This document shows, piece by piece, positions 9,072 through 61,122 of a stretch of DNA of 64,000 nt (the stretch's first letter is position 1; every line of letters begins with the position of its first letter). Where the stretch lies: contig CAVSRX010000006.1 of the NCBI GenBank assembly GCA_963730445.1, positions 26,082-90,081 on the forward strand, in the 5' to 3' direction. The notes beneath the pieces are model-generated. The model worked only from the letters and a program-made list of their open reading frames with translations. It was not told the DNA's origin and did no database searches. This DNA is from Vicinamibacterales bacterium. GTDB taxonomy: Bacteria > Acidobacteriota > Vicinamibacteria > Vicinamibacterales > JAMQPK01. The position numbers and the translations under genes are program-made.

Positions 9072-9113
9072 CATTTGCCAGGTCGCGACGCTGAGCCGCA
9101 GAGGCGCGGAGAA

Positions 9114-10102: not shown

Positions 10103-10368
10103 TGGGACGCTACTGGGAGGCACTGAAAGCTGGCGTGAGAGCCTTCAACGAAGGCCCGGACCCGAGCGAGTATGCGATTGCAGGGAAGCCGGTCCGGTGT
10201 CCGCACTGTGGAGAGAGGAAGTTCGCAACGAGCCGCGCACTCCTCAACACCCGTGGTCGCACGGCGTTCGGCGTGGACTGGGCCGATCCCTCAGCCACCA
10301 TCCTCATCTGCGCCGAATGCGGCCGAATCGAATGGTATGCGACCGAGCCTGAGGCGCCCAATAGCTAG
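10099..10368 (+). CDS. small zinc-ribbon protein
   Basis: AAGGAG at 10091-10096 precedes ATG 10099/10102. MMGRYWEALKAG..VRCPHCGERKF..LICAECGRIEWY has two CxxC pairs. Confidence 0.55.
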   Translation: MMGRYWEALKAGVRAFNEGPDPSEYAIAGKPVRCPHCGERKFATSRALLNTRGRTAFGVDWADPSATILICAECGRIEWYATEPEAPNS

Positions 10369-33068: not shown

Positions 33069-34821
33069 ATGAACCTGACCCATCGCCGCCTCATCACCTT
33101 GTTTGTTGCGATTCTGTGCGCCACGTCGTGCGCGTCATCCACGCCGCCGCCGCCACCCGCGAGCGTGCCATCCAGTAGCGCGGCGTTCGACGAGGTCTCG
33201 CGTGCCTTTCTCGAAGATGTCTATCAACGGCAACCGACATGGGCCACCTATCTCGGCATCCATAAGTACAACGATCGGCTCGACGATTACTCTCGCAAGG
33301 CCGTCGACGACGCCGTCGCGTCGGCGAAGCAGTTTCGCGGGCGTGTGGCCGCCATCGATGCGGCGTCGCTGCCGCTCGAGAAGCAGCTCGATCGCGAGCA
33401 GCTGCTGCGCGCGATCGACGCGCGGCTGTTGTCGCTCGAAGTCGTGCGGCCGTGGGCCGTCGATCCCGACTCCTACAGCAGCGGCCTCACGCGCACGGCC
33501 TACATCATGATCAAGCGCAATTTTGCGCCGCCCGACGATCGCCTGCGGCAGCTGATCGCGCGTGAGAAGGCGATGCCAGCGGCGCTTGCGCACGCGCGGA
33601 CGAATCTGCAGAACCCGCCGAAGATTTACACCGAGATCGCCATCGAGCAGATGGATGGCAACCGCGGGTTCTTCGAGACGGCCGTGGCCGCGGCGTTTCC
33701 AACCGTCACGGATAAAGCGCTGCTGGCAGAATTCAAGCAGGCGAATGACGCTGTCATCGCGGCGATGGTCGACTACAAGAAGTGGCTCCAGGACGATCTG
33801 CTGAAGCGCTCCAATGGAAACTTCGCCATCGGTGAGGAGACATACCGTAAGAAGCTCGCCGCCGACGAGATGATCGAGCTGCCGCTCGACGAGCTGCTTC
33901 AGATCGCCGAGCGCGATTTGCGGAAGAACCAGGCGGCGTTCACTGAAGCCGCGCGCGCCATCGATCCGAAGCGATCGGCGTTCCGCTGTGCTCAAGACGC
34001 TCGAAGCCGATCACCCTCCAGCGGAAAAACTGTTGTCGACGACGCAGGCCGAGCTGGATGCGCTGGGCCGCTTCATGACCGAGAAGCGTATCGTCACGAT
34101 TCCGAAGGCCGCGCCGGCGCGAGTGGAGGAGACGCCGCCGTTCCTGCGCGCCACGACCTCGGCATCGATGGATATTCCGGGGCCGTTCGAGACGGTGGCG
34201 ACCGAGGCGTACTACAACATGACGCTGCCCGATCCGAAGTTGTCGGCGGCGGAAAAGAACGAATTCATGACGCAGTGGTACTACCCGGCGATTTCGAATG
34301 TCTCGGTGCACGAAGTCTGGCCCGGACACTATCTGCAGTTTCTCTACGCGCGCAACTTTCCCTCTGATATTCGCAAAGTGCTCGGCGCCGCCACCAACAG
34401 CGAAGGATGGGCGCACTACTGCGAGCAGATGGTCATCGACGAGGGGTTTCACGCTGACGATCCGCGTTATCGCCTGGCCCAGGTTCAGGACGCGCTGCTC
34501 CGCGATGTGCGGTTCATCGTGGGCATCCGCCTGCACACCAGGGGCATGACCGTCGCGGAGGCGGAAGAGTTCTTCGTGAAGGAGGGCTACCAGTCGCGGC
34601 CCGTCGCGCGATCGGAGAGCAAGCGCGGCACATCGGACGCGACCTACGGTTACTACACCATGGGCAAGCTGATGATCCTGAAGCTCCGGGAGGATTACCG
34701 GGCGAAAATGGGCGCCCAGTTCTCGCTGCAGGATTTCCACGACGCATTCATCAAATTGGGGCCGCTGCCGCTGCCCCTCGTGCGCAAGGCGATGCTCGGC
34801 GAAAGCGGCGGACTGTTCTAG
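33069..34821 (+). CDS. DUF885 family lipoprotein/metallopeptidase-like protein; one frameshift near 33975
   Basis: ORF 33069 (lipobox LCATSCAS; ..YLGIHKYNDRLDDYS..) joins ORF 33988..34821 (..SVHEVWPGHYLQFLY..EGWAHYCEQM..YYTMGKLMILKLRE). Confidence 0.8.
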
Positions 34822-34862
34822 GTACTCCTGGCTTTTGGCTGTCCCTGCCACAGACTTTACTA

Positions 34863-35171
34863 TCTCGACACAGAGGCACGGAGGCACAGAGTTCGAAATC
34901 CGACACACGCCGAGTGGCCTTGTGCCCTGTGCGCCAGGGAACTCCGTGGCGCGCGTTGACGTGGCGCCGTAGGCGCCACCGGACAAAACACAAGGCACAA
35001 ACACAAGACCGTAGATCGAGTCGGTCTTGATGTTTGTACCTTGTGCTTTGTCCGACGATGGCCGCGCAGCGGCCATCGTGTCAACGCGTCGCCCGTGTCT
35101 CCGTGTTGAGGACAGCAAAGATCAACTGTCTCTTTGCTTTCCTCTGCGCCTCTGCGTCTCTGTGTCGAGAC
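34863..35171. repeat. gene-free nested imperfect palindrome of about 310 bp between convergent genes
   Basis: Outer arms 34863-34891 and 35141-35170 are reverse complements apart from 4 transitions. Central 31/32-nt arms are 34981-35011 and 35022-35053 with loop TAGATCGAGT. Side hairpins lie at 34961-34979 (8 bp) and 35055-35079 (11 bp perfect). See findings. Confidence 0.85.
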
Positions 35172-35225
35172 AGCGAGTGTCTGGTGCAGACGCGTTCAGA
35201 AATCTCCAATAATTCTCCTGCTCTT

Positions 35226-35993
35226 CTAGCGCGCTGACGTGTCAGCGCAGATGGCCGGCAGCACGTCGCCGATCCGCTGCTGAATCACCGCATCGGCCAT
35301 CGCGTCGAATTGCGTCGGCTCGGCATTAACGATCACGACGCGGGCGCCTGCCGCTTTTGCGCGCGGAACGGCGCCTGCCACCGGATACACCTGCAACGTG
35401 CTGCCGATGGCGAGCAATACGTCGGCTTCACCGGCCGCCTGCATCGCCCGATCGATCACCTCGGGCACGAGCGCCTGGCCGAACGAGATCGTGGCGCTCT
35501 TGAGTATCCCGTTGCAGTCCCTGCACGGCGGATCTTCTTCGCCGGCGCGCACGCGATCCAGCACCACCGGCATCGGCCCGCGGCTGCCGCAGCTCATGCA
35601 CACGTATTCGTGCACGGTGCCATGCACCTCGATGACCTTGTCTGGCGAGTTCCCAGCCTTCTGGTGCAGGCCGTCGATGTTCTGCGTGATCAGCGCGTGC
35701 AGCCGTCCGGCGCGCTCGAGATCGACCAGCGCGCGATGGCCGGCATTCGGTTGAGCGTGCCAGGCGGGATGATCCAGACGCTGCTGCCACGCCAGCTTGC
35801 GCACGTCTGGATCTGACATGTAGTAGTGGATGTTCGAGAGCTTCTCGGCCTTCGGATTTTTCGTCCAGATTCCCTGCGGACCGCGGAAATCTGGAACGCC
35901 GGATTCGGTCGAGATGCCTGCGCCGGTAAGCACGACGATGCGCCGTGATGCAGATACCCAGCGGCGTACCTGATCAATGTCATCCGTCATCAC
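35226..35993 (-). CDS. cobB: Sir2 family NAD-dependent protein deacylase
   Basis: Intact 255 aa. IVVLTGAGISTESGVPDFRGPQGIW, ITQNIDGLH, Zn ribbon CMSCG..CRDCNG, GSTLQVYP. Confidence 0.9.
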   Translation of the reverse strand: MMTDDIDQVRRWVSASRRIVVLTGAGISTESGVPDFRGPQGIWTKNPKAEKLSNIHYYMSDPDVRKLAWQQRLDHPAWHAQPNAGHRALVDLERAGRLHALITQNIDGLHQKAGNSPDKVIEVHGTVHEYVCMSCGSRGPMPVVLDRVRAGEEDPPCRDCNGILKSATISFGQALVPEVIDRAMQAAGEADVLLAIGSTLQVYPVAGAVPRAKAAGARVVIVNAEPTQFDAMADAVIQQRIGDVLPAICADTSAR

Positions 35994-36011
35994 GCCAGTC
36001 TATGACGAATA

Positions 36012-36046
36012 CTTAGCTTGTAGCTGGTGGCCTGTAACTTGTAGCC
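36012..36046 (+). repeat. left inverted-repeat arm (GTAGCYN heptamer words) of the cupin cassette
   Basis: CTTAGCTTGTAGCTGGTGGCCTGTAACTTGTAGCC. TAG/TAA at 36014, 36021, 36035 and 36042 (7-nt period). The reverse complement of 36737-36770 matches about 29 of 34 positions. Confidence 0.8.
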
Positions 36047-36053
36047 TTCGAGC

Positions 36054-36443
36054 ATGGAGAAAGTGAATCTCGCTCAGAAGCTGTCACAGATCGGAGAGTA
36101 CTGGCGACCCAAGGTCGTCGGCGAGCTCAACGGCCAGGAGGTGAAGCTCGTCAAATTCAAGGGCGAGTTCGTGTGGCATCATCACGAGCACGAGGACGAG
36201 CTCTTTCTCGTCGTGCGCGGCACGTTCCGTGTCGAGTTTCGCGACCGCGTCGTCACGCTCGCAGAAGGTGAATTCGTCATCGTCCCTCGGGGCGTCGAGC
36301 ACCGAACGGCTGCGGATGCTGAAGTCCACGTGCTGATCTTCGAGCCTGCGGCAACGCGGAACACCGGGAACATCGAGCATGAGACATTGACCGCGCCGAA
36401 TAGGTGGCGATCATTTGTAACAGTTTCATCCGGGAGGTTGTGA
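36054..36443 (+). CDS. cupin domain protein
   Basis: 129-aa ORF. YWRPKVVGELNGQEVKLVKFKGEFVWHHHEHEDELFLVVRGTFRVEF..EGEFVIVPRGVEHRT. Confidence 0.8.
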   Translation: MEKVNLAQKLSQIGEYWRPKVVGELNGQEVKLVKFKGEFVWHHHEHEDELFLVVRGTFRVEFRDRVVTLAEGEFVIVPRGVEHRTAADAEVHVLIFEPAATRNTGNIEHETLTAPNRWRSFVTVSSGRL

Positions 36444-36515
36444 TGTCTCTCGAAACGGACACCACGTTACAGAAGTCCCTCGAATTCCATTGACAGTATT
36501 CGCAAGCGCATTTAC

Positions 36516-36734
36516 ATGTCGGGCTGGATTGTTGTCGCGGTCACCATCGGGATGTACGCGCGCTTCGCATACCTTCAGCGGACTACGGACGACTTCGAGC
36601 GGCTGCTCAGCGCAGCGGTCTCCGCGTTGAGCTTCCTGATTGTGTGGGCCGCATTCGCAGTTATCATGTGCGTCATGCGGATGACCAAGCGAATTATGCG
36701 CGCGATTGAATTGTCGTCTCGCGCGCCGAGCTAG
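36516..36734 (+). CDS. small hypothetical membrane protein (2 TM)
   Basis: 72-aa ORF. GWIVVAVTIGMYARFAYL and LSFLIVWAAFAVIMCVM. G+C is lower than in the neighbours. No homolog recognised. Confidence 0.4.
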   Translation: MSGWIVVAVTIGMYARFAYLQRTTDDFERLLSAAVSALSFLIVWAAFAVIMCVMRMTKRIMRAIELSSRAPS

Positions 36735-36736
36735 CT

Positions 36737-36772
36737 GGCTACGAGCTACAGGCTACCAGCTACGAGCTACTA
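36737..36772 (-). repeat. right inverted-repeat arm of the cupin cassette
   Basis: GGCTACGAGCTACAGGCTACCAGCTACGAGCTAC. CTA at 36739, 36746, 36753, 36760 and 36767, which gives TAG on the minus strand at a 7-nt period. Confidence 0.8.
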
Positions 36773-36779
36773 TTGCCCT

Positions 36780-48681: not shown

Positions 48682-48724
48682 TACCTAGAGATCTATAGAT
48701 CTTAGATCTATAGATCTTTAGGTA
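48682..48724. repeat. AT-rich 43-nt near-perfect palindrome built from TAGATCT words
   Basis: TACCTAGAGATCTATAGATCTTAGATCTATAGATCTTTAGGTA. Only one non-central mismatch pair (G:T). Four AGATCT. 13 of 43 bases are G/C. TAG at 48686, 48696, 48703, 48711 and 48719 covers all frames. Confidence 0.85.
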
Positions 48725-48741: not shown

Positions 48742-49125
48742 ATGGAACAACAACCGACGTGCGGCCAAGGGCTCGCCCACAACGCCGCGCTTCCTGCAAA
48801 ACTGGCAGAGGTCTTTGCCGCCGTCGCCGAGGTTCTCGAGACCCATTTGACCGCGCTCGATCCGAAAGACAAGGGCTCGCGGCCCGAGTTCGATGCGTAC
48901 GTCGCGCTTGCGACGGCGCATCGCGAGCTCGAATCGCGCGTGCGCGCGCTTGCAATGCAGATGGAGAGCTATCGAGACTTGCCGATGGCCAAACACGATA
49001 TGTCTGTCATGACATCGGCGAAGGCCACCGAGGCGTTCGAGCAGCTCGTCGCTCAAAAGGAAGCGCTCGCCGCATTGTTACGGGAGTGGGTCGACGAGCA
49101 CCGCGCCATGTTGAAGGCACGCTGA
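48742..49125 (+). CDS. hypothetical protein
   Basis: 127-aa helical ORF (..LAEVFAAVAEVLETHLTALDP..). No family recognised. It is flanked by the two hairpin elements. Confidence 0.5.
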   Translation: MEQQPTCGQGLAHNAALPAKLAEVFAAVAEVLETHLTALDPKDKGSRPEFDAYVALATAHRELESRVRALAMQMESYRDLPMAKHDMSVMTSAKATEAFEQLVAQKEALAALLREWVDEHRAMLKAR

Positions 49126-49130
49126 AAGAT

Positions 49131-49215
49131 GGGTTCCAGGTTCCAGGTTCAGGTTGCGTCCAGGTTCCGGTTCCGGGTTCTGGTTCCGCGTCCAGAACCT
49201 GGAACTCGGAACCTG
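49131..49215 (+). repeat. GGTTCCR-word array ending in a 22-23 bp hairpin
   Basis: GGGTTCCAGGTTCCAGGTTCAGGTTGCGTC, then CAGGTTCCGGTTCCGGGTTCTGG (49161-49183), loop TTCCGCGT, then CCAGAACCTGGAACTCGGAACCTG (49192-49215). One bulge and one mismatch. Confidence 0.8.
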
Positions 49216-53952: not shown

Positions 53953-54476
<524 letters not shown>

Positions 54477-54486
54477 TGGAGGCGTC

Positions 54487-54895
54487 ATGCTGAGAGCGAA
54501 GACTCGCATCGGCGGTCGTCGTGGTGGCGATGGTGTGGATTGGATCGGCGGTTGTGGCGCAGACGCCGGGTACCGCCGGCGCTCTCGTGCTGAACCCGAT
54601 CGCGGCAACCTCGGGCACCGGCGTGAGCAATGCGCAGCTCATCAACCGCGACGAGATTCGCGTGCTGCGCGTCGACGTGGTGCCGGGCGGCGTGCGCAAC
54701 ATTCACTCGCACGACGACATGCAGTATCACCTCTTCATACCGACGGCGGCCGGCATGCAGTTCGAGAGCGCGTCGGAGAAGCCGGCACAGATGGCGGCGT
54801 GGCAGGCGCAATTCGTCAAGGGCGGCACCCAGCACGGCTTCAAGAACACGGGCTCGTCCACCGTGACGATCGTGGAAATTTTCGTCAAGAAGTAA
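54487..54895 (+). CDS. exported cupin domain protein (start region frameshifted, or GTG 54521 start)
   Basis: ORF 54521..54895: RVLRVDVVPGGVRNIHSHDDMQYHLFIP..FVKGGTQHGFKNTGSSTVTIVEIF. ATG 54487 (MLRAKTRI) lies one frame off the hydrophobic AVVVVAMVWIGSAVVAQ segment. Confidence 0.7.
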
Positions 54896-55130
54896 CCACG
54901 AAGACACGAAGGCACGAAGAGCGCGAAGACACGATGAAATGCCGCGTCACGCGTTCTTCGCGGCTTAATCGCGGCTTCGATTGCGCCGGCTGCAAAGCAA
55001 GCCGCCGCCGTGAGAACAACGGCAAAACATGAATGGCTGGAGCGAAACCAATTCATGTTCTTGCCGTTGTTCTCACGGCGGCGCCGACGGCGCGCAATCG
55101 AAGCGTAGCCTTCGAGCCTTCGTGTTCGTA
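54896..55130. repeat. gene-free nested palindrome with CACGAAGR-word arms
   Basis: Word array CACGAAGA CACGAAGG CACGAAGA GCGCGAAGA CACGA (54898-54934). Partner CCTTCGAGCCTTCGTGTTCG (55109-55128). Perfect 13-bp pair GCTTCGATTGCGC (54975-54987) with GCGCAATCGAAGC (55091-55103). Central 31/32-nt arms 55004-55034 and 55051-55082, one bulge, 16-nt loop. Confidence 0.85.
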
Positions 55131-55146
55131 TTTTTGTGATCGGGAA

Positions 55147-55176
55147 CTCTGCGTCTCTGCGCCTCTGCGTCGAGAC
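55147..55176 (-). repeat. CTCTGCGY-word unit, dispersed copy of the 35142-35171 arm
   Basis: CTCTGCGT CTCTGCGC CTCTGCGT CGAGAC matches CTCTGCGC CTCTGCGT CTCTGTGT CGAGAC at 35142-35171 at 27 of 30 positions. Both lie just 3' of a minus-strand gene. Confidence 0.8.
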
Positions 55177-58128: not shown

Positions 58129-58934
58129 CTAAATCCATCGTACTCATCGCGCTGATGCTCACCGCCACCGTATCGGGCCAGCAGAAGCCGGCGCCAATCG
58201 GCTACGACGACACGCCCATGCAGCCCAACGGGAAGTGGCGCGTGCACCAAACCGCGCGCCCGTACCCGGCCGTCATCACGCCGCCACCGGCCGGCGGTCC
58301 TGTCGCGCCTCCATCCGACGCCATCGTGCTGCTCGGTGCGGCCGACGATCTCAGCGCGTGGCAGATGGACGATGGATCGGCAGCCACATGGGCGATGAAG
58401 GGCGGCGTGCTGCACACAGGCAAGGGGATGCTGCGCACCAAATACCAGTTCACCGATGTGCAGCTGCATGTCGAGTTCGCGACGCCGTCCGAGGTGAAAG
58501 GCGACAGCCAGGGACGCGGCAACAGCGGCGTGTTCCTGCTCGGCCACTTCGAGATCCAGGTGCTCGACAGCTATCGCAACATCACGTATGCCGATGGCCA
58601 GGCCGCGTCGATGTACGGGCAGTATCCGCCGCTCGTGAACGTGGCGCGCGCGCCGGGAGAGTGGCAAGCCTACGACATCATCTTCAGAGCGCCGCGTTTC
58701 GCCGGCGACGGACAACTCGCGAAGCCTGCCCTCGTCACCGTGCTGCACAATGGCGTCGTCGTGCACCACGCCACGCCGTTCTGGGGCCCGACGCGCCATC
58801 GCAGCGTCCTGCCCTACACACCGGCCATGGCGAGGGGACCGCTCGCCCTGCAGGACCACGGAAACCCCGTCCGCTATCGCAATATCTGGATTCGCGCGCT
58901 GAGGGATTACGACACCGGGGGTGACGGGTGGTAG
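58125..58934 (+). CDS. DUF1080 (3-keto-disaccharide hydrolase) family protein, exported
   Basis: Intact 269 aa. GNSGVFLLGHFEIQVLDSY, PGEWQAYDIIFRAPRF, VLHNGVVV, GPLALQDHGNPVRYRNIWIR. Confidence 0.85.
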   Translation: MTKSIVLIALMLTATVSGQQKPAPIGYDDTPMQPNGKWRVHQTARPYPAVITPPPAGGPVAPPSDAIVLLGAADDLSAWQMDDGSAATWAMKGGVLHTGKGMLRTKYQFTDVQLHVEFATPSEVKGDSQGRGNSGVFLLGHFEIQVLDSYRNITYADGQAASMYGQYPPLVNVARAPGEWQAYDIIFRAPRFAGDGQLAKPALVTVLHNGVVVHHATPFWGPTRHRSVLPYTPAMARGPLALQDHGNPVRYRNIWIRALRDYDTGGDGW

Positions 58935-59017
58935 CTACTAGCTGGTAGCTGGTAGCTTGTAGCCGGTAGCCTGTAGCACGTGGCTGTAGCTCGAAGCTGA
59001 TAGCTTGTAGTTAGTAG
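58931..59017 (+). repeat. GTAGCTN heptamer array (about 13 units), left inverted-repeat arm of the four-helix-bundle cassette
   Basis: GTAGCTA CTAGCTG GTAGCTG GTAGCTT GTAGCCG GTAGCCT GTAGCAC GTGGCT GTAGCTC GAAGCT GATAGCTT GTAGTTA GTAGCGG. TAG at 58932, 58939, 58946, 58953, 58960, 58967 and 58974. Spans the whole gap between two convergent stops. Confidence 0.9.
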
Positions 59018-59385
59018 CGGCCCTCCGGGCGCATGGATGCGATCAGGCCGTTCAACATCTTGCCCACTTCTTCGACGATTTCTTGAATCCGATCGTAGTC
59101 ATGCGTGGCGAGAAACCCCACACGCTTTGCGATTTCTAGCTGAACTTCGACCTCGGCCTGAGACCCGAGCGCGATGTCGAGGTGATTCAAGAATACTGTC
59201 TGACGCTTGCGGCGTTTTCCCTCACCGATGTTTGAAGGAATTGAAACGCTTGCCCGACGGATCTGAGACGTGAGGCCAAATTGCTCGGAGCGCGGGAATG
59301 ATTTGGTGACGCTGTAAATTTCCTCAACGAGCGTCATCGATCGCTGCCACACCGTCAGATTGCGAAACGATTCATGGTTAGTCAT
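59011..59385 (-). CDS. four-helix-bundle protein (TIGR02436 / 23S rRNA intervening-sequence protein / Avd-like family)
   Basis: ORF 59011..59490(-) trimmed to ATG 59385. MTNHESFRNLTVWQRSMTLVEEIYSVTKSFPRSEQFGLTSQIRRASVSIPSNIGEGKRRKRQTVFLNHLDIALGSQAEVEVQLEIAKRVGFL.. Confidence 0.85.
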   Translation of the reverse strand: MTNHESFRNLTVWQRSMTLVEEIYSVTKSFPRSEQFGLTSQIRRASVSIPSNIGEGKRRKRQTVFLNHLDIALGSQAEVEVQLEIAKRVGFLATHDYDRIQEIVEEVGKMLNGLIASMRPEGRY

Positions 59386-59494
59386 GCTGCGACAGGCTGC
59401 AAGGTGCGTGCTGCGCAGAATTGCGGGAAATCGCGAGATTTCATGTAGACGTTGCAATTTCTGCGATCCGCAGGATCGCAATTTCTGCAACGCC

Positions 59495-59565
59495 CGGCTA
59501 CCGGCTACCGGCTTATGGGCTACCAGCCACAGGCTACAAGCTACCGGCTACCAGCTACCAGCTAG
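59495..59565 (-). repeat. right inverted-repeat arm (reverse-complement GTAGCYN heptamers, about 10 units)
   Basis: CGGCTAC CGGCTAC CGGCTTATG GGCTAC CAGCCAC AGGCTAC AAGCTAC CGGCTAC CAGCTAC CAGCTAG. CTA at 59498, 59505, 59520, 59534, 59541, 59548, 59555 and 59562. Confidence 0.9.
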
Positions 59566-59596: not shown

Positions 59597-60394
59597 ATGA
59601 GATCGTTATTGATTGCCACTGCGCTCCTCATTGCGCAGCCTGCGTTCGCGCAGCTTGCGCCGCACAACGAAGCGGGCGTTACCTTCGGACATGTGCATCT
59701 GAGCGTAGCCGACCCGAAGGTGCATCATCAGATGTGGGTGGAGCAGTTCGGCGGTGTGGTAGCCACCAAGGGCACCTTCACCATCGTGAAGCTGCCCAAC
59801 ATGATGATCGCCTTTCGCGGCACGAAGCCGACGGGCGGCACCGAGACGACGGCGCTGAACCACTTCGGGCTGAAGGTGCCGAGCATGGCCAACGCCATCG
59901 CAAAGTGGAAAGCCGCGGGCTACGAAGTACAGCGCGAGTTCAAGGGCAGCGAGGGATTTCCGAACGCGTTCCTGATCGGTCCCGACGGCCTGCGCTTCGA
60001 GCTCCAGGAAGACACCACGTTGAAGGCGCCGGCCGTCGCGTATCACCTGCACTTCCAGGTGCCCGAGCCGGCGAAGCTTCGCGATTGGTACGTGGACACC
60101 TACGGGCTGAAGGCCGGCAAGCAGGGCAACTTCGAAGTGGCCGAGGCGCCGGGCATGCGGTTGCTGTTCGCGCCCTCGAAGGAAGCGCCCACGATGGGCA
60201 CGCGCGGCACGACGGTCGATCACATCGGCTTCGAGATTCGCAATCTCGCCGAGTTCCTGAAGAAGCTCGAGGCGAAAGGCATCAAGCTGGAGACCGCGTA
60301 TCGCGAGATTCCGGCGATCGGCCTCAACATCTCGTATCTCTACGATCCGTTGAACGTGTATATCGAGATGACGGAAGGGTATACGGGGTACTGA
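59597..60394 (+). CDS. two-domain VOC family protein, exported
   Basis: GGAGGA then ATG 59597. MRSLLIATALLIAQPAFAQ. FGHVHLSVADPKVHHQMW..NHFGLKVPS and ..YHLHFQVPEP..VDHIGFEIRNLAEFLKKLEAKG. Confidence 0.8.
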   Translation: MRSLLIATALLIAQPAFAQLAPHNEAGVTFGHVHLSVADPKVHHQMWVEQFGGVVATKGTFTIVKLPNMMIAFRGTKPTGGTETTALNHFGLKVPSMANAIAKWKAAGYEVQREFKGSEGFPNAFLIGPDGLRFELQEDTTLKAPAVAYHLHFQVPEPAKLRDWYVDTYGLKAGKQGNFEVAEAPGMRLLFAPSKEAPTMGTRGTTVDHIGFEIRNLAEFLKKLEAKGIKLETAYREIPAIGLNISYLYDPLNVYIEMTEGYTGY

Positions 60395-60450
60395 GTCGAA
60401 GAGTCGAAGAGTCGGAGAGAGTCGAAGAGTCGGGGAGTCGAAGAGTCGGG
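60393..60450 (+). repeat. tandem octamer array GAGTCGRR x7
   Basis: GAGTCGAA GAGTCGAA GAGTCGGA GAGAGTCGAA GAGTCGGG GAGTCGAA GAGTCGGGG. Starts inside the TGA stop (60392-60394) of the VOC gene. Confidence 0.85.
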
Positions 60451-60483
60451 GCGATGGCGGTGAGCTGTCGCCCCGTTTTGTTT

Positions 60484-61122
60484 ATGGGTGGATTGATCGA
60501 TCTTCGGACATGGAAGCGGCGCGACCACTATTTGTGGTTCCGCAACTACGCGCAGCCGTTCTTCAGCGTGACGGTTGACGTCGATGTGACCCCCGTGTGG
60601 AACAAATGCCGCAAGCCGGGGGCGCCGTCCTTCTTTCTGTCGTCTGTGTTTCCGATGTTGAAAGCCGCGAACGATGTCGAGGCGTTCCGCCTGCGCCTTC
60701 GCCCGCGTGGCGTGTGGCGCCACGATCGTGTGGCCGTCGGTCCAACCATCATGCGGCCGGATGACACATTCGGCTTCGTGCGCCTTGAGCCGGCGGCGAG
60801 CTTCGAGGAATTTTCCGCGCATAGTCGAGCGGCGATCGCGCGTGCCGCGGAGCGGAAAGCACTGGCGCCGTCTAAAAAGATCACCGACGACATCATCTTC
60901 CAGTCGGTGCTGCCGTGGCTGCGCTTCACGTCGTTCACGAACGCCTTGCCGGGTAAGGGCGACTCGATTCCACGCGTGGTGTTCGGCCAGTGCGCGCGCC
61001 AGGGCTCGCGGATGACCATGCCGGTGGCCGTCGAGGTGCACCATGCGCTCGTCGACGGTCTCGACGTGGCGCGATTCTTCGAGCGCTTCGGCGAGTACAT
61101 TCATAGTAGTGCTGACCTTTAG
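60484..61122 (+). CDS. CatA-like (chloramphenicol-type) O-acetyltransferase family protein
   Basis: In the frame of ORF 59734..61122. MGGLIDLRTWKRRDHYLWFRNYAQPFFSVTVDVDVT..FQSVLPWLRFTSFTN..MPVAVEVHHALVDGLDVARFF. An alternative ATG lies at 60454. Confidence 0.75.
   Translation: MGGLIDLRTWKRRDHYLWFRNYAQPFFSVTVDVDVTPVWNKCRKPGAPSFFLSSVFPMLKAANDVEAFRLRLRPRGVWRHDRVAVGPTIMRPDDTFGFVRLEPAASFEEFSAHSRAAIARAAERKALAPSKKITDDIIFQSVLPWLRFTSFTNALPGKGDSIPRVVFGQCARQGSRMTMPVAVEVHHALVDGLDVARFFERFGEYIHSSADL

Follow-up and report, generated by a model that had tools for sequence, protein, structure and literature searches.

The closest documented analogue of the element described here is the 23S rRNA intervening sequence (IVS). 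The element lies between convergent genes for a DUF885 protein and a Sir2 protein in a 64,000-nt stretch of DNA from a Vicinamibacterales bacterium (Acidobacteriota; GenBank assembly GCA_963730445.1, contig CAVSRX010000006.1, positions 26,082 to 90,081 of the forward strand). This whole stretch is referred to below as the window, and coordinates are counted from its first letter. The long imperfect palindrome at this junction is probably the body of a 402-bp copy, lacking an open reading frame (ORF), of a modular family of palindromic elements in Vicinamibacterales-type Acidobacteria whose copies come and go as selfish DNA. The Vicinamibacterales rank among the most abundant bacteria of soils, and to our knowledge their non-coding DNA is essentially uncharted.

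Several other systems share features with this element. IVSs are located in helix 9, 25 or 45 of 23S rRNA. Some bacterial MITEs (miniature inverted-repeat transposable elements), such as the Correia elements of Neisseria and the enterobacterial ERIC sequences, are co-transcribed and fold into long hairpins. The palindromes of repetitive extragenic palindromic (REP) sequences and bacterial interspersed mosaic elements (BIMEs) are thought to be mobilised as folded single strands. Integron cassettes carry a single imperfect palindrome, attC, at the 3' end of each cassette and are arrayed beside intI.

For some of these systems, more specific descriptions are available. The 23S rRNA IVS of Coxiella burnetii is 428 nt long, has a 28-bp terminal stem that is cut by RNase III, carries a small ORF of the IVP family and is suspected to be mobile (PMC4990558). 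REP/BIME units (REPINs) are defined by a 20–40-nt palindrome tagged GTAG or CGTC, and a separate TIRYT group, with genes lying between long inverted repeats, is encoded by Acidobacteria (PMC3733652). Intergenic heptamer arrays, including the cyanobacterial short tandemly repeated repetitive (STRR) sequences and the TAACTGA repeats of Beggiatoaceae and Bacteroidetes, have no known function (PMC4679880).

Insertion polymorphism at the DUF885/sir2 junction

In the window, the DUF885 gene ends at 34821 and the SIR2 gene (35226–35993, minus strand) has its stop at 35226–35228. A close relative from a metagenome, locus L081, has a Sir2 product that is 95% identical and DNA that is about 94% identical to the window. 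Window positions 33108–34821 align to L081 1353–3065 and positions 35224–36422 to L081 160–1358, the two L081 parts being adjacent with a 6-nt overlap. At this junction (...GGATTGTTCTAGCGCGCTG..., in fuller form ...GGATTGTTCTAGCGCGCTGACG...), the two stop codons of L081 overlap in a single TTCTAG, in which the DUF885 gene stops at TAG and sir2, on the opposite strand, at the overlapping CTA.

The window has the hexamer twice (...GGACTGTTCTAG, 402 nt, TTCTAGCGCGCTGACG..., that is, ...TTCTAG[402 nt]TTCTAGCGCGCTG...). Its left copy (34816–34821) contains the DUF885 stop (TAG, 34819–34821), its right copy (35224–35229) contains the sir2 stop (CTA at 35226–35228 on the plus strand), and the 402 nt between them (34822–35223), which constitute the whole element, are missing from L081. 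Because the hexamer is duplicated, both genes retain a stop codon. An initial annotation, made from the letters of the window alone, had proposed a MITE-like element and a comparison of orthologous DUF885/Sir2 junctions; the empty site in L081 and the 6-bp direct repeat bounding the insert agree with that proposal. A filled ancestral state would need two independent TTCTAG sequences exactly at both stops, so that insertion with duplication is the parsimonious explanation.

Compact junctions at which convergent genes overlap in their stops at CTAG are normal for this genome. A further one is found at 10365–10368, where a minus-strand GMC oxidoreductase gene and a convergent 100-aa ORF end in the same manner as at the empty site. 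The orthologous 3' end of the GMC oxidoreductase gene has a 5'-truncated copy of the element family in L087, a different word array in L086 and overlapping stops in the window; since the neighbouring genes differ, no boundaries can be defined from this comparison.

The sir2/DUF885 junction is a hotspot for different insertions. For instance, L082 and L083, whose Sir2 is 91% identical to that of the window, have a 421-aa gene there (L082 1187–2452, L083 1786–3051) that has no match in Pfam or NCBIfam. The window insert was also considered as a decayed remnant of this gene, an idea rejected for lack of any sequence similarity. Relative to its intact counterpart in L081, the DUF885 gene itself (33069–34821) has an extra T at 33982, a 1-nt insertion that breaks it into two overlapping ORFs; it is a frameshifted pseudogene, or the T is a sequencing error. 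An exact-protein look-up of the window's Sir2 gave no match. Many Sir2 homologues at 81–95% identity are present in a large protein collection, one of them labelled Vicinamibacterales, and the pssA gene, which adjoins a second copy of the element, gives a similar picture, so that the source is a Vicinamibacterales-type acidobacterium. Among GTDB species representatives, the best Sir2 match is only 76% identical, with no synteny with the window and no element.

Anatomy and folding of the palindrome

The long palindrome reported between the two stops is present, with all the arms and hairpins of the initial annotation at the positions given there. All parts are described on the plus strand. The outer arms consist of tandem 8-nt words, as had been noted. 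The left arm (34860–34891) has TCTCGAC followed by the purine-type words CACAGAGG CACGGAGG CACAGAG, and the right arm (35141–35173) has the pyrimidine-type words CCTCTGCG CCTCTGCG TCTCTGTG followed by TCGAGAC, with 2.9 copies of CACAGAGG and 2.8 copies of CCTCTGCG, respectively. Over 32 nt each (34860–34891 and 35142–35173), the arms are 84% complementary. They differ by five transitions, not the four first counted, three of the A·C type and two of the G·T type on the plus strand.

Between the arms lies a four-way-junction core (34950–35090). Its closing stem P1 pairs 34951–34960 with 35080–35089 (9/9 paired over 34952–34960 and 35080–35088) and is followed by hairpin A (34961–34979; 8 bp, perfect), the central hairpin B (34980–35054) and hairpin C (35055–35079; 11 bp, perfect). 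The two sides of hairpin B, 34980–35003 and 35031–35054, pair at 92%, and the hairpin continues to 35011 and 35022.

The inner right arm CCGTGTCTCCGTGTTGAGG (35092–35110), which is the family-canonical one, pairs with 34877–34887. It is followed by a further hairpin, GAGGACAGCAAAGA...TCTTTGCTTTCCTC (35108–35144; 35108–35121 with 35131–35144, 93%), that was absent from the earlier list and whose module also lies 3' of the inner arm in L165 (91% identity over 35085–35131). The window copy has, in this way, a canonical inner right arm, an extra hairpin and a second, better-matching right arm. The variable left module (34892–34949) is common to L165 at 82% identity.

The flanks are also modular. 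The left flank module (34822–34862) starts with about 16 unique nt, including CTCCTGG, and continues with GCTGTCCC...CTTTACTA, which is similar to the left flank of L145; BLAST coverage of the insert by other loci begins at about 34845. On the other side, a right flank module, CAGCGAGTGTCTGGTGCAGACGCGTTCAG (35171–35199), is common to L092, L100, L103 and L149 at 83–89% identity and is followed by a tail of CTCC-type words, AAATCTCCAATAATTCTCCTGCTC (35200–35223), with zero coverage by other loci. Only the outer 16–24 nt at each end of the insert match no other locus.

Folded as RNA, the palindrome reaches −188.8 kcal/mol on the plus strand (z −12.8) and −206.8 kcal/mol on the minus strand (z −15.8), and 0 of 100 shuffles are as stable. 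The minimum-free-energy analysis that had been suggested reveals folding far beyond chance on both strands, and the remark that this is more structure than a terminator needs is borne out. The ORFs called here had been described as junk, and none of those overlapping the element matches Pfam.

A family of word-armed elements in soil metagenomes

The degenerate arm motif CTCYGYGYCTCYGYGYCTCYGYGTCGAGA (three YCTCYGYG words and TCGAGA) was found in 101 metagenome stretches, all of soil type. Partner arms were sought by blastn-short, as a strict regular expression had found none. Many of these loci are simple hairpins with loops of 18–60 nt, and a second class has about 190–200 nt between the arms. 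The interior of the window element (34850–35199) is 67–77% identical to L145, L091, L111, L170, L118, L166, L142 and others, whereas L165 has its left module and its inner-arm/hairpin module but not the core.

A common plan emerges from these loci. It starts with a short TTTGCTR-like lead, TCTCGAC with purine-type words, a variable module and the closing stem P1 (...GTCGAC). Hairpins A (GCGCC-NNN-GGCGC), B (25–33 bp, with a conserved apical ACAAGA/TCTTGT) and C (GGCCGC-NNN-GCGGCC) follow, and then the 3' side of P1, the right arm CCGTGYCTCCGTGTTGAGR and often a (TCTTCGTG)n array that abuts the stop of the next gene. Throughout the family, the outer inverted arms are tandem 8-nt words ending in TCTCGAC/GTCGAGA.

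A covariance model of the core (R1; 141 positions, 49 pairs) matches about 30 of the 101 arm-bearing loci, or about a third, and finds a truncated core copy in the relative L087. In the window it matches 34950–35090 on the plus strand (117 bits, E 1.6e-26) and 54971–55107 on the minus strand (83.9 bits), and an exhaustive unfiltered search of the window found no copy beyond these two. The model is specific: only two marginal matches (E about 3e-3) were obtained in 80 unrelated Sir2 loci (L001–L080), which were part of 0.89 Mb searched. The initial annotation had raised the possibility that no other copies exist, which is contradicted by these copies in the window and in soil metagenomes. The palindrome is real and belongs to an apparently undescribed family of structured, presence-polymorphic elements that is common in soil Acidobacteria.

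Several sequence features recur in the family. Purine-type words contain GGAG or GGAGG, resembling Shine-Dalgarno sequences (e.g. 34869–34891, L165, L137 and L097), and pyrimidine-type words and the adjoining CTCCTRR arrays contain CCTCC, resembling anti-Shine-Dalgarno sequences. Arrays of (CACGAAGR)n always adjoin a stop codon, as the stop followed by (A)CCACGAAG.

The second family member in the window (54897–55176, minus strand) lies between a converging 133-aa gene and pssA. It has its core at 54971–55107, hairpin B at 55003–55083 and an arm at 55146–55176, and a (CACGAAGR)n array abuts the TAA stop at 54893–54895. The right arm of the first copy had been said to recur at 55147–55176. No match with three or fewer mismatches is present there, but an arm of the same word family is, (YCTCTGYG)3 followed by TCGAGAC, as part of this second complete element. 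A separate array of five GAAAGTA copies (54438–54475) lies directly upstream of the ribosome-binding site and start of the 133-aa gene.

The pssA junction varies in length between relatives. It measures 8 nt in L190 (TAG GGCCCGGG CTA), 40 nt in L189, where the stop is followed by four CACGAAGN words and nothing else, about 97 nt in L179, which has a core-less variant, and 290 nt in the window and in L132, where the second copy is 97.7% identical. No duplication is evident at the site. The varying lengths and the lack of a duplication indicate that the elements are gained, lost and remodelled module by module, behaviour closer to that of mosaic elements such as BIMEs than to simple cut-and-paste.

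Covariation and strand symmetry of the core

The initial annotation had called for a covariation analysis of homologous copies, noting that non-compensatory changes would speak against a conserved structure. Compensatory changes are indeed present. In 12 copies, RNAalifold predicted 52 pairs, of which 29 have compensatory double changes, and an independent MAFFT alignment of 28 copies has double changes in 31 of 40 pairs. The named structure has 92.2% of cells paired, compared with 72.9% for column shuffles and 37–47% with slid partners. Its covariation score is 0.546 versus 0.184, and none of 500 shuffles attains the observed level in any of five measures. The four-way junction is therefore a selected structure.

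The pairing is almost purely Watson-Crick, with 0–4 G·U pairs among the roughly 50 pairs of each core, and folding as RNA favours the model-sense strand in 16 of 28 copies (Wilcoxon p = 0.21). The lower energy of the minus strand at the window copy (−206.8 versus −188.8 kcal/mol), together with five of seven arm mismatches being G·U on that strand, had suggested that this strand is a functional RNA. This idea was rejected, and the minus-strand advantage is not a property of the family, because 16 of the 28 copies favour the sense strand. Core orientation relative to flanking genes varies, and copies also lie between tandem genes in either orientation, although the gene-context analysis is crude and noisy in high-GC DNA and is used only qualitatively. 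In L142 and L117, hairpins A and C are swapped relative to the arms.

No promoter-like site was found in the element. A terminator scan gave no canonical terminator and two weak GC-hairpin/U-tract sites against 0.7 expected, neither of them at the arms. Rfam 15 gave 0 matches in the window at gathering scores, and relaxed mode gave only sub-threshold microRNA-hairpin and RsmY matches. Taken together, the strand symmetry, the varying orientation, the A/C swaps and the lack of a promoter, terminator or Rfam match therefore point to a palindrome that must fold on both strands, and not to a one-strand non-coding RNA. A structured RNA, one of the options raised by the initial annotation, finds no specific support: pairing is conserved, but without strand bias, consistent orientation, promoter or Rfam family. 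The functional fold may instead be folded or cruciform DNA recognised by a protein, or double-stranded RNA in transcripts from either direction.

Relatives that enclose a GxxExxY gene

Some members of the family carry an ORF between the same arms. L113, L192, L194 and L195 have the layout arm, GxxExxY ORF, core, arm. L193 has the same layout, but its core is degraded and undetected by R1, and L167 has an arm, GxxExxY and an arm. L192–L195 were picked by homology to the GxxExxY protein alone, and in L192, L194 and L195 the core (71–103 bits) starts a few bases after the GxxExxY stop codon. The arm-enclosed protein of L113 and L167 is about 130 aa long and matches TIGR04256 (GxxExxY) at about 1e-40, and its close homologues P0241 and P0271 match Pfam PF13366, of the PD-(D/E)XK superfamily. 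Because the same arms enclose a GxxExxY ORF and then the same core in these relatives, the window copy is best read as an ORF-less MITE-like or IVS-like derivative.

Flanking genes are common to L113 and L192–L195, which are therefore orthologues of one old insertion. Their GxxExxY ORF is intact throughout, with 79–100% amino-acid identity. Across the four orthologues with an intact core (L113, L192, L194 and L195), 22 of 26 unpaired columns vary, compared with 13 of 57 pairs, and 4–5 of those are compensated on both sides. This difference, and the compensation, indicate that selection for pairing continues at the site and is not confined to propagation; compensatory changes thus keep the helices among orthologous as well as paralogous copies. 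Large contigs (matching lengths of 283,667 and 207,203 nt) carry both a GxxExxY gene and a Sir2 orthologue of the window.

The GxxExxY family is very large, yet almost absent from the literature. An AlphaFold model of the protein is confident (pLDDT 93.8), and Foldseek matches it to Cas4 SSO0001 and lambda exonuclease. The Cas4-like match is in line with the labelling of a cas4 gene as GxxExxY in one paper. A role as a Holliday-junction resolvase acting on the four-way core was also considered and found no support, with no solved relative by sequence and no resolvase among the Foldseek matches.

Selfish element or host RNA

We favour the reading of the element as selfish DNA that spreads or is gained and lost, and it would then behave like a MITE or like a 23S rRNA IVS outside rRNA. 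The machinery that mobilises or maintains it could read its near-perfect Watson-Crick fold, equal on both strands, as DNA in hairpin or cruciform form; alternatively, the fold could be read as double-stranded RNA in the transcripts of the two converging genes. After insertion, the element would give both genes a very stable 3'-terminal stem, which may block 3' exonucleases and offer a site for RNase III. The GxxExxY protein, a predicted nuclease, would be the leading candidate for an enzyme acting on the family. We infer the mode of mobility, this role of GxxExxY and any function as a 3'-untranslated-region stem or RNase III substrate, whereas the polymorphism with its TTCTAG repeat, the family membership, the covariation, the strand symmetry and the ORF-bearing relatives are shown.

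Several observations weigh against selfish spread. No outgroup has the same adjacency with which to polarise insertion versus deletion, as L082 and L083 differ and L086 and L087 are rearranged. A source copy of at least 94% identity is not seen within the 64 kb of genome covered, and a clean target-site-type duplication is seen only at the DUF885/sir2 copy. A survey of direct repeats at family flanks is uninformative in either direction, with only four usable loci and a 6-nt word in common in 58% of mismatched controls. The arms lie 38 nt and 50 nt inside the ends of the insert and are thus subterminal, and the outermost sequences of the two sides do not form an inverted repeat. At the pssA site, the solo word array and the core-less variant look like stepwise build-up or decay and not like cut-and-paste. 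The element occurs twice in the 64 kb, and its arms in about 100 metagenome loci, but the ORF-bearing partner encodes GxxExxY/PF13366 and no recognised transposase, and the structural model matches only generic PD-(D/E)XK nucleases (TM score about 0.55, E about 4e-3). Finally, an RNA role of benefit to the host would account equally well for pairing that is conserved in place.

Such a role is the most serious alternative, although we consider it clearly the less probable one. The element would be a cis-acting host RNA, such as a shared bidirectional transcription barrier, a 3'-untranslated-region stabiliser or an RNase III stem, with selection acting on the RNA fold and mobility incidental or absent. 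Its location between two 3' ends suits this role, as do the arrays adjoining stops as the stop followed by (A)CCACGAAG, seen at 54893 and in L189, L145, L111, L131, L172 and L159. Both strands fold extremely stably, orthologous copies keep their pairing in place, and a need to fold in transcripts of both directions would also explain the missing strand bias. However, no U-tract terminator is found above chance, a four-way junction with nested arms far exceeds what the role needs, and close relatives do with overlapping stops (L081) or 8-nt spacers (L190). That copies also lie between tandem genes in either orientation, and that the same arms enclose a selfish-type ORF, likewise speaks against a host role. 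An independent small-RNA gene, trans-acting or protein-sequestering, is far less plausible still. The strong covariation of the four-way junction and the GGAG-like motifs of the purine-type words, which could bind proteins, are set against the lack of a promoter-like site and of any Rfam family even at relaxed threshold, save generic hairpin models. There is no strand bias and almost no G·U pairing, orientation relative to neighbouring genes is inconsistent, and the element is missing from the 94%-identical relative L081.

Mobilisation by an IS200/IS605-like tyrosine transposase (RAYT or TIRYT), as for REP/BIME-type or TIR-type repeats, is improbable. In its favour, the elements are modular palindromes outside genes that cluster with other repeats, their subterminal hairpins without terminal inverted repeats resemble IS200/IS605 ends, and TIRYT genes within long inverted repeats do exist in Acidobacteria (PMC3733652). 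Yet the GTAG or CGTC head is absent, the units are about 10 times the length of a REP, a 6-bp duplication is unexpected for Y1 transposases, and the ORF between the arms is GxxExxY, with no Y1 transposase seen there. An assembly artefact such as a palindromic chimera, a possibility raised at the outset, can be practically dismissed. While the insertion at the exact DUF885/sir2 site is seen in the window only, the structure is asymmetric, with differing hairpins A and C, unrelated left and right modules, two right arms and no mirrored flanking DNA. The architecture also recurs in about 30 independent assemblies, and the second copy is reproduced in L132 at 97.7% identity.

Other word-bracketed units in the window

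The initial annotation had described the palindrome as an empty or collapsed version of the inverted-repeat cassettes at 36012–36772 and 58931–59565. This holds in that the same word arms enclose a GxxExxY ORF plus core in other contigs, but the two cassettes named use other words, 7-nt GCTACNR, and have no sequence in common with the element. The link to them is therefore one of kind and not of homology. Both are alike to the element in design, with inverted tandem-word arms and presence/absence between relatives.

In the first cassette (36004–36776), a cupin gene (36054–36443) is bracketed by inverted GCTACNR heptamer arrays. The whole block is missing from L086, where YaeQ and sir2 are 26 nt apart, and a part of it (36423–36743; 321 nt, with a small membrane-like ORF at 36516–36734) is missing from L081. 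The second (58931–59565) carries a four-helix-bundle/23S-rRNA-IVP gene (59011–59490, minus strand; PF05635 3.8e-38, TIGR02436 9.3e-37) between 46-nt inverted heptamer arrays that are 85% complementary, and is an IVS-like cassette outside rRNA.

Further word arrays are scattered through the window. A (GAGTCGAA)n array (60385–60485) runs from the stop codon of the upstream gene and is followed by a GC-rich hairpin and T-run resembling a canonical terminator. A self-complementary CTATAGAT array (48685–48721) lies upstream of a 127-aa ORF (48742–49125), and a (GGTTCCR)n array with a short inverted partner (49132–49200) lies downstream of its stop; together these may form another word-bracketed unit. 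At 9080–9112, the solo purine-type words GTCGCGAC GCTGAGCC GCAGAGGC GCGGAGAA fill the 40 nt that separate a stop codon from the following ATG.

A broader and more speculative idea, which we regard as rather unlikely, is that word-armed elements form a distinct class of mobile cassettes in Acidobacteria, and perhaps more widely, delimited by inverted arrays of 7–8-nt words. Their cargo would range from nothing to the four-way-junction core, the GxxExxY PD-(D/E)XK nuclease, the four-helix-bundle (23S-rRNA-IVP) protein or an ordinary gene like the cupin gene at 36054–36443. The GxxExxY nuclease would move or maintain the unit through its action on the folded arms or junction, and 23S IVSs would be the same elements landed in rRNA. 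If true, two very large orphan families, TIGR04256 and TIGR02436, would gain a role, and intergenic tandem-word arrays an explanation.

In summary, the element defines a widespread, structurally constrained repeat family that reshapes gene junctions, turning overlapping stops into 400-bp spacers, and it links the GxxExxY protein family to a defined structure of DNA or RNA. There is also a practical side, as such elements break assemblies and over-extend gene calls, for example the GMC oxidoreductase of L087, called at 590 aa, and the Arg/Cys-rich ORFs called here.

Comparison with known systems

Compared with integron cassettes, the element has arms at both ends, in inverted orientation, and the cassettes are scattered and not arrayed; no integrase was found among the window genes scanned against Pfam. 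The heptamer arrays of other phyla are similar in their tandem 7–8-nt words, their strictly intergenic location, the presence of several types side by side and their absence from the same site in close relatives. Here, however, the arrays occur in inverted pairs that form stems enclosing ORFs or a structured core, and both the phylum and the words differ.

The element resembles REP/BIME and RAYT/TIRYT palindromes in being extragenic, in occurring in mosaics and in lying near stop codons. It is nevertheless not a REP, because its arms start with TCTCGAC and lack the GTAG/CGTC tag, and because its units of 190–400 nt, with word-repeat arms, are about ten times longer. In the loci examined (64 kb of genome and short contigs), no Y1 tyrosine transposase was seen between the arms.

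The likeness to MITEs is closer. The element is small (402 nt, below about 600 bp) and intergenic, has inverted repeats and no ORF matching Pfam, varies in presence between close relatives with a short direct duplication, and has an ORF-bearing relative with the same ends. Its inverted repeats are subterminal, however, its partner ORF is no recognised transposase, and its composition is mosaic and modular, varying even at one orthologous site. We know of no covariation-conserved internal structure in typical MITEs, unlike in this element.

As for the 23S rRNA IVS, the differences lie in location, arms and cargo. The element sits between the protein genes DUF885 and sir2, in a window with no rRNA match, its arms are tandem 8-nt words accompanied by a four-way-junction core, and the ORF of full-length relatives is GxxExxY, of the PD-(D/E)XK family, and not a four-helix-bundle protein. 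On the other hand, both are a few hundred nt long, with a long inverted-repeat stem of about 28–32 bp (here 32 nt, 84%), and both have either no cargo or a small orphan ORF, the IVS-type family PF05635/TIGR02436 itself being carried by the cassette at 58931–59565. Both are also sporadically distributed and suspected of mobility. This likeness makes the element a tractable model outside rRNA for the decades-old question of what 23S rRNA intervening sequences are and how they move.

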